Source: a virus
Taxonomy: Duplodnaviria > Heunggongvirae > Uroviricota > Caudoviricetes
DNA: 24,898 nucleotides
Direction: 5' to 3' (one strand)
Virus record (IMG/VR): IMGVR_UViG_2778261506_000001
Coordinates: 1 to 24,898 of that record
The notes under the pieces are model-generated. The model was not told the origin of the DNA. It ran no database searches and saw nothing but the letters and a program-made list of their open reading frames with translations. Made by a program: the position numbers and the translations under genes. Below, piece after piece: positions 5,672 to 20,513 of this stretch (position 1 is its first letter; each line of letters starts with the position of its first letter).

Positions 5672-6412
5672 TTAACTGGCGGTGACGTTGATTTCTGCAA
5701 CCGCAGCAAGTTCACCATTACCGGATACGACCGGAATGTTGACCTTGCCTGCAGCAACACCTTTCACGGTGATGGTCATACCACTGACCGACACGGTGGC
5801 TTTTGTTTTATCCGCTGACACCGCACGGAAGCTCTTGTCGGTTGCGCCTTCCGGCTGGAATGCCACGGTCAGCGTGGTGCTCTTCCCTTTCACTACGGAA
5901 GCGCTGGCTGGCGTCACGGTCATACCGGTTGCCGCTGTTACCGTGCTGCGATCTTCTGCCATCGACGGACGTCCCACATTGGTGACTTTCACCGTGCGGG
6001 TGATCACTTCCTTCGCCGTCACCGCCTTACCGATACTGCTGACCCAGCCGCGGAACACATCGACCGTGCCGTTCGGGAAGCGGATTTTATAGGCACGGGT
6101 ATCACCTTCATTAAACCACGCCAGCAGCGCCTGCTGCCCCTGCTCTCCGGGCATCCACGCCAGCGTGAAGCTGGTATCTCCGGCAGATTTCTGCCCCTGT
6201 CCGGTCGCGGTCCAGTCCGCATCTTCATCATCGAGATAACTGTCGTCATAGGACTCAGCGGTCAGTTCGCCGGGCGTCAGGTCTTTAACCTTTGCCAGAC
6301 GCGACCAGTCATTGTCTGAAAGCGGGTTTGCATAAGGGTCGCCGCTCCCGTTATAAACCCTCAGTGTGGTCCCGGCCCCTTTCACCGGTGCCAGAGGATT
6401 TGGTGTTGGCAT
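5672..6412 (-). CDS. V: major tail tube protein V (C-terminal Ig-like domain)
   Basis: Start placed at internal ATG 6412 ([17 protein letters not shown]...) giving 246 aa as in lambda gpV; the track ORF extends upstream to 6442 and would overlap U. Confidence 0.9.
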
Positions 6413-16792: not shown

Positions 16793-17281
16793 TTAATAGC
16801 CATCAGAAGTAATCGCTACAGATTTCAATCCCTCAATGTCATCCTTGGACAGGGCGAACCATTCACCGTGCTTTCTCTTTGCGGCAAATTTGCGATGAAG
16901 CATGTTTTCAGTTTCTCTTCCACCAGGGATCAGGCACTCAAGCTTCAAGCAGTCTGGTCCAGAGTTGCCAAGCGATTTGATGCGTTGTGGAATGTTGGAT
17001 GAATACCCAATTTTGGTTAGCCCAGTTTTCTTCGATGACAAAACGTATACCTGAGGAGGTTCTTTTCTCTGGTCTTCCATTACACGTCTCATTGTTGCCA
17101 TAAGTCCGCCGTGCATCAGCATTTCAACAAAGAACGCTGACCGAACACCTGACGACTTAAGCATGCCAGAAAATTCACTTGCCAATTCCATTAACTCTGC
17201 GATGTTTTCAGGAACTTTTTGGCAGTTATCTTCCTTGTATAAGGAAATCATTCTTTGAAGCTTTTCTTCTAATTGGTTCAT
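16793..17281 (-). CDS. cargo protein with C-terminal T5orf172 (MUG113-like, GIY-YIG-related) domain; N-terminal ~85 aa of unknown function
   Basis: ATG at 17281 with AAAGGTAAAG upstream (162 aa); track start 17317 is GTG (174 aa). C-terminal pattern VYVLSSKKTGLTKIGYS...RIKSL...ETENMLHRKF...KHGEWF; occupies the bor position between Rz and cos. Confidence 0.6.
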   Translation of the reverse strand: MNQLEEKLQRMISLYKEDNCQKVPENIAELMELASEFSGMLKSSGVRSAFFVEMLMHGGLMATMRRVMEDQRKEPPQVYVLSSKKTGLTKIGYSSNIPQRIKSLGNSGPDCLKLECLIPGGRETENMLHRKFAAKRKHGEWFALSKDDIEGLKSVAITSDGY

Positions 17282-17430
17282 AGCGTCTTTACCTTTTAGA
17301 AAGTGAGCCTGTCTCACAGAAAAGCCGCCCCGAGATGGTCGCCACCATATACGGCAGTTCTCAGGCTCAACTTTCTGAAAGGCTCGGGTGATGTAATATG
17401 CGCGTGAGATGCGCTGTGAAATTCAGATGT

Positions 17431-17486: not shown

Positions 17487-17945
17487 TTATTTCAGGCATT
17501 GCGTCCTGATGTATTCCTGCAGGTAGTTAACCTGCGCGGTTATCTTGTCGATTCCACTTCGGAGACGGTAATAATTGAGTTCAGCATCTGCTGTAAGTCC
17601 TGGGCTTTCTCCATCGCCCATGCCGCTGGCTCCGGTCGTTGACTTTGCACAGGTGGCGGCGACTTGCAGGCGCTTACGCCCAGCAGAAACATCAGCACGG
17701 AGACTTTCGATAGTCGCGTTAGCATCAGCAAGCTCCTTTGTGTATCTTGCGTCGAGTTCTGCTACATCACGTTGACGCTTCCGCATGTCAGCGATGGTGG
17801 CGTTCGCCTTCTCCAGTTCACTGGCCTTGTTATCGCGCTGCTCTTTGTAGGCGATTGCGTTATCACGGTAATGATTAACAGCCCATGACAGGCAGACGAT
17901 GATGCAGATAACCAGAGCGGAGATAATCGCGGTTACTCTGCTCAT
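17487..17945 (-). CDS. Rz: i-spanin Rz
   Basis: Start placed at ATG 17945 ([38 protein letters not shown]..., ATGA overlap with R stop); N-terminal TM helix and coiled coil; track ORF starts 4 codons upstream. Confidence 0.9.
17540..17725 (-). CDS. Rz1: o-spanin Rz1, embedded in Rz in the +1 frame
   Basis: Start placed at ATG 17725 (track start 17731 is TTG); [20 protein letters not shown] with lipobox VSAC, then Pro-rich mature region [13 protein letters not shown]... Confidence 0.75.
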
Positions 17946-18439
17946 TGTTTCCCCCACAAACAGATTTCACGCTCAATCTCACGACGAGTCATGAGACCTT
18001 TCCATTGCTTACCGCCAGCATATGTCCAGCGACGTAGCTGATCACATGCGCCTTTGATATCGCCCTGGTTTATTTTGCGAAGAAGCGTCGATGTTCTGAA
18101 ATTGCCAGCACCCACGTTGTAAACGAATGAGTAAAGAGCGCCGCGCGTTGTTTCCGGTATATCGACTTCGATGTACGGGTTAATTTGTCTGGCGACAGTG
18201 GCAAGGTCTTTATTCAAGAGTGCTTTGCATTCTGCTTTGGTATACGTTTTACCGAGCATGATGTCTTTTCCTGTATGCCCGTGACATACAGTCCATACAC
18301 CAACAATATCTTTGTATGGTATGTAGCTGACACCTTCCAGACCATCGTTACCACTTGGGCCAGTGATTAACACTGATGCTATAGCAATTGCTCCGCCACC
18401 AATAGCAGCAGCAACGGCTTTTCGTAATGATGGAGGCAT
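17942..18439 (-). CDS. R: SAR endolysin (phage-21 R type lysozyme)
   Basis: 165 aa; N-terminal Gly/Ala-rich weakly hydrophobic SAR segment [20 protein letters not shown]; lysozyme-like body; matches remembered R21. Confidence 0.92.
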
Positions 18440-18654
18440 TATTCACCTCTCGCAGCCTTGCGCTTATCTTCTTTAATCTTGAAATAAAGGTTTGTCAGGT
18501 ACGTCAGCAGGCCAAATACCAGGCTACCCAGCACACCTATTGCTGCCCACTGTGAGGGCGTGACTTTATCGAGCAGCTGTAAAAACCAGTACCCGGCACT
18601 ACCTGCTGAGGTGCCATAGGCGACACCCGTTGTTAACTTATCCATGGATTTCAT
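18439..18654 (-). CDS. S: pinholin S (phage-21 S type) with dual-start motif
   Basis: 71 aa, [71 protein letters not shown]; Met1/Met4 dual start; two TM segments; GAGGTGGGG RBS. Confidence 0.9.
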
Positions 18655-18769
18655 AACCCCACCTCGCAGACAAAGCGGGTGTAAATTGAGGGAATACTAC
18701 GAAACGTAACAGACTCGGAGTCAGTGAATAACTCAGGTATTGGGTTATCAGCTAATATCGAGACTCAAA

Positions 18770-18800
18770 AAATGGAAAAACCCGCTCGACGGCGGGTTTA
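18770..18800 (-). terminator. intrinsic terminator about 115 nt upstream of S (candidate tR'-like terminator)
   Basis: minus strand AAACCCGC-CGTCGA-GCGGGTTT with the stem running into TTTTTCCATTTTTT. Confidence 0.55.
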
Positions 18801-19226
18801 AGCTGTGTGACGAAGTAACCACTCTTAACAGCATAACCAATTTTTTACGTACGTAAACCACTAAATGATATTTGCGAGAATGCTACCGAGTATTGAAAAC
18901 ACCACTACAAATACATAAGCAAATCTCAACAAATAACCAACAAATAATTTCCAGTGTTATTTTTAGCCGGTTTAAATTGAACCTTCAAATTATAGAGCAC
19001 TTATAAATAACAGCCGTTAATATAAATTGGCTAATAGATTTATTTTTATTCAGCCAAGAGCCATGAATAGGATTCGATAGAAAAAAGTTCAGATAAAAAT
19101 AGAGATCTACTTCACAAATCAAACGAGAAACCAAAACTTACATCTTGAAATAATCACATTGATTAGATGAATATTTATCGCGCAGTGACATCATTTTTTA
19201 ATAATAGTTCAAAAAAAGGGCTCACG

Positions 19227-20324
19227 ATGAAAAAATTAACAGTGGCAATTTCTGCTGTAGCTGCATCAGTACTGATGGCGATGTCTGCTCAGGCAGCTGA
19301 AATTTATAATAAAGACAGTAACAAGCTGGATCTGTACGGGAAAGTTAATGCTAAGCACTACTTCTCCTCTAATGATGCAGATGATGGTGATACTACTTAT
19401 GCCCGTCTTGGCTTCAAAGGTGAAACCCAAATCAACGATCAACTGACTGGTTTCGGTCAGTGGGAATATGAATTCAAAGGCAACCGCGCTGAATCTCAAG
19501 GTTCCTCCAAAGATAAAACCCGTCTTGCCTTCGCTGGCCTGAAATTCGGTGACTACGGCTCCATCGATTACGGCCGTAACTACGGTGTAGCATACGACAT
19601 CGGTGCGTGGACTGACGTCCTGCCAGAATTCGGTGGTGACACTTGGACTCAAACCGACGTGTTCATGACTCAACGTGCAACTGGTGTTGCAACCTATCGT
19701 AACAACGACTTCTTTGGTCTGGTTGATGGTCTGAACTTTGCTGCTCAGTACCAAGGCAAAAACGATCGTAGCGATTTCGATAACTACACTGAAGGTAACG
19801 GTGATGGCTTCGGTTTCTCTGCTACCTATGAATACGAAGGATTCGGTATCGGTGCAACTTATGCGAAATCTGATCGTACCGACACTCAAGTTAATGCAGG
19901 GAAAGTTCTTCCTGAAGTATTTGCTTCCGGTAAAAATGCAGAAGTTTGGGCCGCAGGTCTGAAATATGACGCTAACAACATTTACCTGGCCACTACCTAT
20001 TCTGAAACCCAGAATATGACTGTATTTGCTGATCACTTCGTTGCTAATAAAGCCCAAAACTTCGAAGCTGTTGCACAATATCAGTTCGATTTCGGTCTGC
20101 GTCCGTCCGTTGCTTACCTGCAATCTAAAGGTAAGGATCTTGGAGTATGGGGCGATCAGGACTTAGTCAAATATGTTGATGTAGGTGCAACCTATTACTT
20201 CAACAAAAATATGTCTACTTTCGTTGATTACAAAATCAACCTGCTTGACAAAAATGACTTCACTAAAGCACTCGGTGTAAGCACTGATGACATCGTTGCT
20301 GTAGGTCTGGTTTACCAGTTCTAA
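19227..20324 (+). CDS. nmpC: outer-membrane general porin of OmpC/OmpF family, prophage NmpC/Lc type
   Basis: Start placed at ATG 19227 after AAAGGG RBS (365 aa); signal peptide [23 protein letters not shown] then [17 protein letters not shown]...; C-terminal VYQF; track ORF starts 20 codons upstream. Confidence 0.93.
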
Positions 20325-20462
20325 TCTGATTACGAAAAAGATATGTTGCGGGAGGCGTTGCCTCCCCAACATATAAGTGGCTCCCTCAAGCCACTTCCTT
20401 TAGAAGCACAACCTTGCTTCTAACTATATAAACCTTCTGTTATATATTACCCTTTATTTTTG

Positions 20463-20486
20463 GGGGCGTCTCAACGCCCCATTTTT
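20463..20486 (+). terminator. intrinsic terminator downstream of the porin gene
   Basis: GGGGCG-TCTCAA-CGCCCC followed by ATTTTT; last of four consecutive hairpins after the porin stop. Confidence 0.6.
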
Positions 20487-20513
20487 AATAATTTTTAGTA
20501 AACAATTGGCATA

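Follow-up and report, generated by a model that had tools for sequence, protein, structure and literature searches.

The stretch of DNA analysed here, hereafter the window (24,898 nucleotides), is an E. coli lambdoid prophage of the DLP12/PA-2-like type, in reverse orientation. Its minus strand reads, in order, nin-region genes (rusA, ylcG), the antiterminator gene Q (quuD), a reverse-oriented porin gene, holin gene S, the endolysin gene and Rz, with lambda-like terminase and head genes further along, past Rz (Table 1). QuuD is 79–81% identical to Q of the 933W-type Stx phages. Like Q of 933W and the other PF06530 proteins, it is a distant relative of Q21, as represented by structures 6P18 and 6JNX (E 7e-8).

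This gene order is widespread. The 2.6-kb Q–porin–S segment is found at a coverage of at least 80% in 2394 of 5426 complete E. coli genomes (~44%). In BLAST searches of phage records, the 572-nt porin–S intergenic region is 99.7% identical to a substitution in the laboratory phage 434B, and it shares 94% identity with PA-2 and 90–99% with many sequenced viable lambdoid phages. RefSeq and GenBank carry no late promoter annotation for the Q–porin–S arrangement.

Table 1. Features of the Q–porin–S region and related promoter dyads, with positions in the window.
Feature	Position	Strand	Details
Antiterminator gene Q (quuD), 127 aa	20514..20897	-	Pfam PF06530 Phage_antitermQ, E 1e-53; RefSeq name quuD
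Possible left-arm vestige of promoter dyad, GTTTAC/TAAAAATT	20490..20503	-	adjoins Q stop; weak evidence, may be chance
Hairpin cluster between Q stop and porin stop	20329..20490	both	three hairpins
Terminator for porin gene	20463-20480 + T run	+	33 nt from Q stop
Terminator-like hairpin	20368-20335 + CTTTTT	-	inside hairpin cluster
Intact porin gene (nmpC/lc type)	19227..20324	+	Pfam Porin_1, E 5e-157; annotated lc in PA-2, nmpC in K-12
Published sigma-E promoter essDp of DLP12	19178..19210	-	GAACT 19210-19206, TCACT 19189-19185, +1 ~19178; inferred
Sigma-70-like promoter towards S	19194..19206	-	-10 TATTAT 19206-19201, start ~19194; K-12 start U00096.2 576081, score 90.2, +/-1
TATAAT hexamer	18994-18989	-	no supported promoter
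Late promoter pR'	18830..18857	-	-35 TTTACG (18857-18852), 16-nt spacer TACGTAAAAAATTGGT, -10 TATGCT (18835-18830)
Perfect 14-bp dyad TTTACGTACGTAAA	18844..18857	-	overlaps -35; candidate Q-binding element
Predicted transcription start A, 7 nt past -10	18823, +/-2 nt	-	K-12 Cappable-seq and Stx-phage figures
Conserved block round start site, GTTAAGAGTGGTTACTTCGTCACACAGCT	18800..18829	-	most conserved block past promoter across Q subtypes
Intrinsic terminator tR'	18766..18799	-	stem 18799-18778 (+25..+46), then U-rich tail
S21-type holin S	18439-18654	-	Pfam Phage_holin_2_1; RefSeq essD
SAR endolysin	17942-18439	-	Pfam Phage_lysozyme; RefSeq rrrD
Rz	17487-17957	-	lysis gene after endolysin
Dyad GCGTACGC			Stx2a_1447, Stx1_499, 569R4
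Dyad TGCGGTCCGCA			PhiR5_1
Dyad GGAATTCC			phiP27

Several observations place a late promoter, pR', close to S in this intergenic region. Local BLAST aligns window positions 18858-18776, which run from the -35 to the first hairpin, with the leader of Stx phage 933W (77% identity across 83 nt, E 4e-12); the same search with the whole 933W leader found no match in the window for the rest of the StxS leader. In 933W the matching segment starts inside the last codons of Q and is annotated as pR' (TTTACG-N16-TATCAT), qut and terminator. The window aligns with it base for base through the -35, the spacer, the -10, the block GTTAAGAGTGGTTAC and the hairpin. When the intergenic region was searched against phage records, 18858-18776 was the only part common to several hundred Stx phages. 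The element occurs in 363 phage records and a QuuD-like Q in 416, and these are largely the same kinds of phage. Within the window the motif TTTACGNNCGTAAAA-N7-TANNNT occurs once, against 0.01 expected, and the interval between the Q stop and the porin stop holds no copy of the late-promoter motif.

The promoter is linked to Q across genera. We compared 30 genome loci carrying a QuuD homologue (68–99% identity) in Escherichia, Shigella, Trabulsiella, Citrobacter, Pantoea, Xenorhabdus, Providencia and Morganella. Of these 30 loci, 26, spanning eight genera, carry the exact motif TTTACG-WW-CGTAAAA, as does every locus with a Q of at least 68% identity and enough downstream sequence. The other four are two short contigs, one 36% relative and locus L111; the Q stop was not located by our script in L111 (motif at 6388) or in L116 (motif at 6390). 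Where the Q stop was located (24 of the 26 loci), the motif lies -12 to +29 nt from it in 21. Since most C-terminal tails of Q, which vary in length, stop short of the motif, its conservation does not come from coding. Among viral contigs with a near-identical QuuD, 79 of 80 have the motif 1600–1700 nt past the Q stop, which is the porin arrangement. Viable phages share this arrangement (PA-2, mEp332 and ev099), and in them the block 18857-18766 is invariant except for a stem mismatch in PA-2 and ev099.

Conservation within the element follows the form of a promoter. A -35 of TTTACG and a -10 of TAnnnT are present in 26/26 loci, which were themselves picked by the -35/dyad motif. In 16 of those loci the T, A and final T of the -10 are invariant while its middle varies, and the spacing is fixed at 16 nt. 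Judged from sequence, an invariant -35, fixed spacing and TA...T with a variable middle are the signature of a promoter. The window's pR' agrees with the sigma-70 consensus at no more than 8 of 12 positions, and a promoter scan did not pick it up; it also lacks the A-rich tract found 5' of the -35 in insert-free relatives.

Mapped starts from K-12 and published figures from Stx phages agree on where transcription from pR' begins. K-12 starts were tabulated on U00096.2, whose offset from U00096.3 at this locus we take to be 777 bp (776 bp for an IS1 and 1 bp in ylbE); this value fits the essD and ompT coordinates, and mapped start positions are good to +/-1. The Cappable-seq table of Ettwiller et al. 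(PMC4782308) gives plus-strand starts at 572979, 573406, 575093, 575453, 576081, 576452 and 576907, with scores of 90.2 for 576081, 9.3 for 573406 and 1.7 for 576452, the last barely over the study's cut-off. Position 576452 converts to NC_000913.3 577229 and to window 18823 +/- 1, the homologous A located 7 nt past TATGCT. For Stx phages, Sy et al. (PMC7547250) give a distance of 258 nt between the pR' start and tR', with RNase E cutting within GU/AUU at +173, and on the Stx2 II and 933W sequences both figures fit a start at the A 7 nt past TATCAT. We also considered an alternative in which transcription begins within the A run of CGTAAAAA and TATGCT serves as a pause element. This was rejected, as the Stx figures and the K-12 start fit only TATGCT as the -10.

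The block around the start site probably holds a sigma-dependent pause element, for which sequence comparison offers TTACTT/TACTTC at +6..+12 as a candidate. In 933W the annotated 'qut', ACATTGCC, aligns to this block. The candidate pause position reads TACATT in 933W (+7..+12), TACTTC in the window, and TAGCAA or TCACTT in other genera; we found no clean -10-like pause element in the window and no consistent TAnnnT across the genera compared. The PA-2 record annotates a 'CRP site' on the same block (window 18823-18803), which has a single good half-site, TCACA, and was not relied on. A full-text literature search with the element's sequence strings returned nothing relevant.

A preliminary description of this DNA had looked for the promoter further upstream, tentatively taking the TATAAT hexamer to be pR', some 200 nt 5' of the terminator, and proposing a 6S-like RNA of ~200 nt that ends at the hairpin. 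The hexamer is indeed present, a perfect -10 on the correct strand ~190 nt upstream of the terminator, but it does not hold up as a promoter. It has no usable -35, a weakness that the description had itself pointed out, and it reads TATGAT in PA-2. It sits in the most variable stretch of the intergenic alignment, between variable flanks, and falls outside the segment homologous to the 933W pR'. Nor are such hexamers enriched in the window (2 copies against 6.7 +/- 2.7 expected from shuffles). Around it, between U00096.2 576081 and 576452, the K-12 Cappable-seq table contains no plus-strand start site. TATAAT is a chance hexamer here, and we give its use as pR' virtually no credence. The pR' that we propose lies instead ~160 nt downstream of it. 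The supported start is only 25 nt ahead of the hairpin, which would make the leader ~50 nt long in place of the ~200 nt proposed.

The second element of the unit is a canonical intrinsic terminator, tR', on the minus strand ahead of S. It had been noted from the sequence at the outset, and a terminator scan, RNA folding and conservation all bear it out. Its sequence is AAACCCGC-CGTCGA-GCGGGTTT (18799-18778) followed by TTCCATTTTTT, forming eight pairs, five of them G-C. The fold of ~-12 kcal/mol is the dominant structure of the folded leader, and the terminator ends ~120 nt 5' of the S start codon (18654). Other terminator-like sites turn up in the window too (6 in all against 3.8 +/- 1.7 expected); what singles this one out is its conservation. 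K-12 DLP12 has the identical sequence, 933W and Stx2a_1447 also possess the terminator, and the stems of PA-2 and ev099 carry one mismatch (G to T, GCGGG to GCTGG). Across related loci from several genera, a hairpin and U run lie at +24..+64 in 20 of 26, and in a 21st at +95. Stem sequences vary by genus (CCCGC/GCGGG, CCTCGC/GCGGGG, CCTTGC/GCAAGG, CCCCG/CGGGG), so that it is the structure of the hairpin that is conserved, not its sequence.

Annotation in 933W agrees with this assignment: the aligned hairpin is labelled 'possible rho-independent terminator' in one record and 'homologous to tR'' in a second. By comparison with the Stx phages, the hairpin at 18799-18778 may be a leaky terminator, since the Stx-phage pR' transcript of 258 nt (PMC7547250) crosses the homologous first hairpin and reaches a second terminator. 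The predicted 3' end is absent among the entries listed in a Term-seq supplement (PMC7815308). Searching the whole window against Rfam gave no family at gathering score; all that came up was a Trp_leader match below threshold (20.8 bits against 41, E 0.95), which owes its score to the terminator. A coincidental hairpin-like match falls within a head gene (10895-10870).

The one candidate for a Q-binding site in this unit is the perfect dyad TTTACG-TA-CGTAAA, made up of the -35 together with the first half of the spacer. Among the copies in the fetched loci it is perfectly symmetric in 114/114, and its centre is only ever TA or AT, never AA or TT. Both centres occur inside Escherichia, Citrobacter, Xenorhabdus and Providencia, from which it follows that the centre has switched repeatedly by double substitutions that keep the symmetry. 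Phages whose Q is only 46–52% identical have the same downstream module (GTTAAGAGTGGTTAC through to the hairpin) and a different dyad at the same position (Table 1). These alternative dyads always precede AAAA. Such subtype dependence has the look of a specificity-determining protein site, and on this comparative basis we regard the dyad as a candidate Q-binding element.

Combining these observations, we propose with good though not complete confidence that 18857-18766 on the minus strand is a Q-dependent late regulatory unit of the 933W/H-19B pR' family, with a compact, phage 21-like geometry. Homology, the pattern of conservation, the structure of the terminator and one weak K-12 start are the observations behind this proposal; Q binding, pausing and antitermination are what we infer from them. 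In the lysogen, sigma-70 polymerase would start at about A18823 from TTTACG-N16-TATGCT, and without Q the RNA would end ~50 nt on, at the hairpin and its U run. S, R, Rz and the head genes would stay off in the lysogen because the transcript terminates so early. Upon induction, QuuD would be made from the early rightward transcript and bind its promoter site, for which the dyad is the candidate. It would then load onto polymerase paused just past the start and let it read through the hairpin, so that S, R, Rz and the head genes would be transcribed. If it works as Q21 does, QuuD may form a nozzle at the RNA exit channel and in this way keep the hairpin from forming (Yin et al., bioRxiv 651190).

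In this locus ~1.66 kb separates the unit from Q. Homology to insert-free relatives ends near Q codon 126 and resumes a few bases 5' of the -35, so the extra DNA is set exactly between Q and pR'. It contains the porin gene, the porin regulatory region and the hairpin cluster. Together with its promoter region and terminators, a porin gene would thus have been inserted in reverse between Q codon ~126 and the -35 of pR'. Possible left-arm vestiges suggest, on sequence grounds, that insertion may occur at the dyad itself: besides the possible vestige that adjoins the Q stop in the window, Citrobacter braakii (L099) has TTTTTACGAC at the matching place. The narrow interval that separates the Q stop from the dyad may be a recurrent insertion point for reverse-oriented cargo. 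It is filled with reverse-strand genes in C. braakii (three ORFs, 2.3 kb) and in Stx2a_1447 (two genes), and probably in a similar way in Stx1_499, PhiR55_1 and 569R4.

Lying reversed upstream of pR', the porin gene is transcribed away from it, without convergent transcription in the lysogen, and it also stays outside the late transcript. A reverse-oriented lysogenic-conversion gene can in this way separate a regulator from its target site while disturbing neither.

The preliminary description had reasoned that the porin separates the late promoter and qut from Q, and this part of it is supported: the homology to 933W, the single copy of the motif, the linkage to Q across genera and the K-12 start all point to a pR' on the far side of the porin. 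Late transcription could instead start beside or inside Q and run antisense through the porin, leaving the hairpin as the only checkpoint. A moderate K-12 plus-strand start does lie inside quuD (U00096.2 573406, ~window 20670, score 9.3), near a promoter-like scan site at 20700-20673. Against this, the Q-linked motif is absent there, and transcripts would meet the three hairpins that separate Q from the porin, of which one is terminator-like on the minus strand. The K-12 Cappable-seq table also lists no plus-strand start between the Q stop and IS5. We consider a start in or beside Q very improbable.

A more serious competitor to pR' lies upstream, near the porin. Rueggeberg et al. 2015 reportedly found the DLP12 promoter essDp to depend on both RpoE and Q. 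A study of the operon (PMC7918800) cloned its regulatory region as '-121 to +650' with reference to that work, and the primers of PMC7918800 map to window 19299-18529, which puts the essDp +1 at ~19178. The sequence there fits a sigma-E-like promoter, GAACT-N16-TCACT. Only 16 nt upstream of this +1 is the K-12 start at ~19194, whose -10, TATTAT, overlaps the proposed sigma-E -35.

One of these promoters could be the one that serves S, with QuuD acting there, 18857-18766 being a vestige of pR' and the hairpin attenuating read-through. The Cappable-seq start at 19194 is ~50 times stronger than that at 18823 (90.2 against 1.7), and PMC7918800 cites work on regulation of the operon by a Q-type antiterminator and RpoE, with a numbering that puts +1 at ~19178. 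However, the Q-linked motif is absent near 19178-19210, while 18857-18766 is near-invariant in viable phages and linked to Q across eight genera. The reporter fragment 19299-18529 contains both promoters and cannot discriminate between them, and mutations in the -35 could hit either promoter because TATTAT overlaps the sigma-E -35. Transcripts from 19194 or 19178 must also cross the hairpin at 18799-18778 before they reach S. We therefore regard an upstream promoter with a vestigial pR' as unlikely, and retain 18857-18766 as the working late unit.

The placement of pR' says where Q would switch on a DLP12-type lysis cassette. Such cassettes have been associated with the formation of biofilms, the production of vesicles and the release of peptidoglycan. 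pR' at 18857-18830 offers a concrete alternative to the published sigma-E promoter, and it predicts a constitutive leader RNA of ~50 nt. The unit is of an ordinary kind, and its arrangement is modestly interesting.

A broader idea, which we hold only tentatively and would not yet bet on, is that PF06530 Q proteins recognise subtype-specific dyads (TTTACGWWCGTAAA, GCGTACGC, TGCGGTCCGCA, GGAATTCC) that overlap or abut the -35, ahead of a shared start-site and terminator module, and that the gap between Q and dyad is a recurrent point of cargo insertion. If this were true, the sigma-E model published for essDp of DLP12 would have to be reconsidered. The subtype-varying dyad is also a directly testable candidate DNA site for the Q family that controls Shiga-toxin expression.

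Comparison with known systems clarifies the identity of the unit. It has the components of a lambdoid late unit: a Q gene upstream on the same strand (at 1.66 kb, not adjacent), a promoter with a weak mapped start, a terminator and, further along that strand, the genes for lysis and morphogenesis. Like lambda pR'-6S RNA-tR', it would combine a constitutive sigma-70 promoter, a Q-loading site and a terminator, followed by S. Lambda differs in that its Q comes from an unrelated protein family, its terminated RNA is ~194 nt against ~50 nt here, and its unit is adjacent to Q. With the published DLP12 essDp the window shares the operon essD-rrrD-rzpD and the Q protein; the +1 of essDp, by contrast, is ~355 nt 5' of the start proposed here and without the Q-linked motif.

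Two further comparisons had been proposed at the outset, with phages 21 and 82. The latter fell through. Q82 is an unrelated 229-aa protein of another family (PF06323; BLASTP E 8.6), so QuuD is not a phage 82-type Q, and both a 'GCC at +15-17' match and a placement of the Q-binding element modelled on phage 82 fall with it. Phage 21 was more instructive. After its Q stop come 7 nt and the -35, then a spacer that holds a 16-bp Q-binding element, then the -10, the start, a pause at +2..+8 and the terminator. The window shares this compact layout, with a promoter-embedded Q-binding element and an early pause element (both candidates here) and a terminator that ends by ~+50. Q21 is a distant homologue of QuuD, and the downstream lysis genes of the window are of phage 21 type. 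Nevertheless, the two units have no DNA homology, and the Q21 element consists of two 8-bp subsites repeated in direct orientation (ATTGAGCA, AATGAGCA), unlike the candidate here, an inverted repeat of 14 bp that overlaps the -35.

Among the closest relatives is the pR'-qut-terminator unit of 933W and H-19B, which forms the start of the StxS locus. Two differences concern context: in 933W the unit abuts and overlaps the end of Q, whereas here it lies 1.66 kb off, past a reverse porin; and nothing in the window corresponds to the remainder of the StxS leader, to the second terminator at +258 or to the tRNA genes. Without a 258-nt leader, a second terminator and a 3' StxS fragment, it is not an StxS small-RNA locus. 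In the promoter itself, the -10 is weaker than that of 933W (TATGCT against TATCAT), and the A-rich tract 5' of the -35 is absent. The DNA is homologous from the -35 to the first hairpin (77–78% over ~82 nt), with the same -35 TTTACG, 16-nt spacer, TAnnnT -10 and start-site block TAAGAGTGGTTAC, and a Q that is 79–81% identical. An exact 15-nt motif common to both places the unit by homology with the 933W/H-19B-type pR' (PF06530 Q, subtype A). The window unit is thus an unannotated member of a known pR' family, in a recurrent split arrangement.

A strong K-12 transcription start site on the late strand lies in the porin 5' region and is oriented out of that region toward the holin gene S. It is preceded by a TATTAT -10 element, and the +1 of the published sigma-E promoter essDp lies 16 nt downstream of it. 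RNA initiated here would be about 420 nt long if it ended at the tR' hairpin, and is probably antisense to part of the 5' UTR of the porin gene. A weaker sense-strand start lies within quuD itself, 156 nt ahead of the Q stop codon, with a promoter-like site (20700-20673) close by. The coordinates of these starts and of several other features are collected below.

Additional features in and around the late region of the window
Feature	Position	Strand	Basis or setting
Strong start site	Window 19194-19206; K-12 NC_000913.3 about 576858	Minus	K-12 Cappable-seq, score 90
Sense-strand start site inside quuD	Window about 20670; U00096.2 573406	Minus	K-12 Cappable-seq, score 9.3
Apparent left arm of promoter dyad	Window 20490-20503	Minus	GTTTAC|TAAAAATT, just past Q stop
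Apparent left arm of promoter dyad	C. braakii locus L099, 6390-6405		TTTTTACGAC, just past Q stop
174-aa ORF, T5orf172/MUG113 domains (GIY-YIG-like)	Window 16793-17317	Minus	Between Rz and terminase genes
125-aa ORF	Window 24461-24838	Minus	Window edge

Both the window and C. braakii retain, just past the Q stop, a sequence resembling the promoter dyad's left arm, the dyad being the candidate Q-binding palindrome at pR'. The comparison suggests that cargo inserted at the dyad and partly duplicated it, though the resemblance could be due to chance. In the sequenced lab phage 434B (OL657227, 1-3114), the "434 nonhomology" region carries an IS5-interrupted nmpC. Between porin and S, this phage shares 99.7% identity with the intergenic sequence of the window, which is itself nearly identical to K-12 DLP12, and the Q-S-R region of this stock appears to have been acquired from its K-12 host.

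Alignment of the porin-S intergenic region (A1) also revealed variation in the terminator and the S leader. In PA-2 and ev099 the terminator stem has GCTGG in place of GCGGG in its 3' arm (window 18781-18785; column 445), an uncompensated mismatch that should weaken termination in these two phages, both of them viable. The same pair carries 16 nt (CTGCTTTTTTGCGATA; columns 527-542, window about 18680-18690) that are absent from the window and K-12 and sit ~45 nt ahead of the first codon of S.

Of the two ORFs listed above, the T5orf172/MUG113 ORF falls within the late operon, and the ORF at the window edge looks like the C-terminal part of the IS1 transposase (InsB).

The Q protein of Stx2a_1447 (PF06530; L003 3021-3359) also matches the Pfam family Sigma70_ECF, though weakly (E 8e-4). 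Q21 has been reported to resemble region 4 of ECF sigma factors, with which this match is consistent; it may also be relevant to the link between Q and RpoE that has reportedly been seen in DLP12.

Finally, the start-site block of the window, AAGAGTGG-TTACTTCG (18811-18826, minus strand), resembles the lambda pause region AACGATGGGTTAATTCG (L123 189-205) at 12 of 17 columns. Set against lambda, the mapped start in the window does not coincide with the first base of AAGAGT but falls within it.
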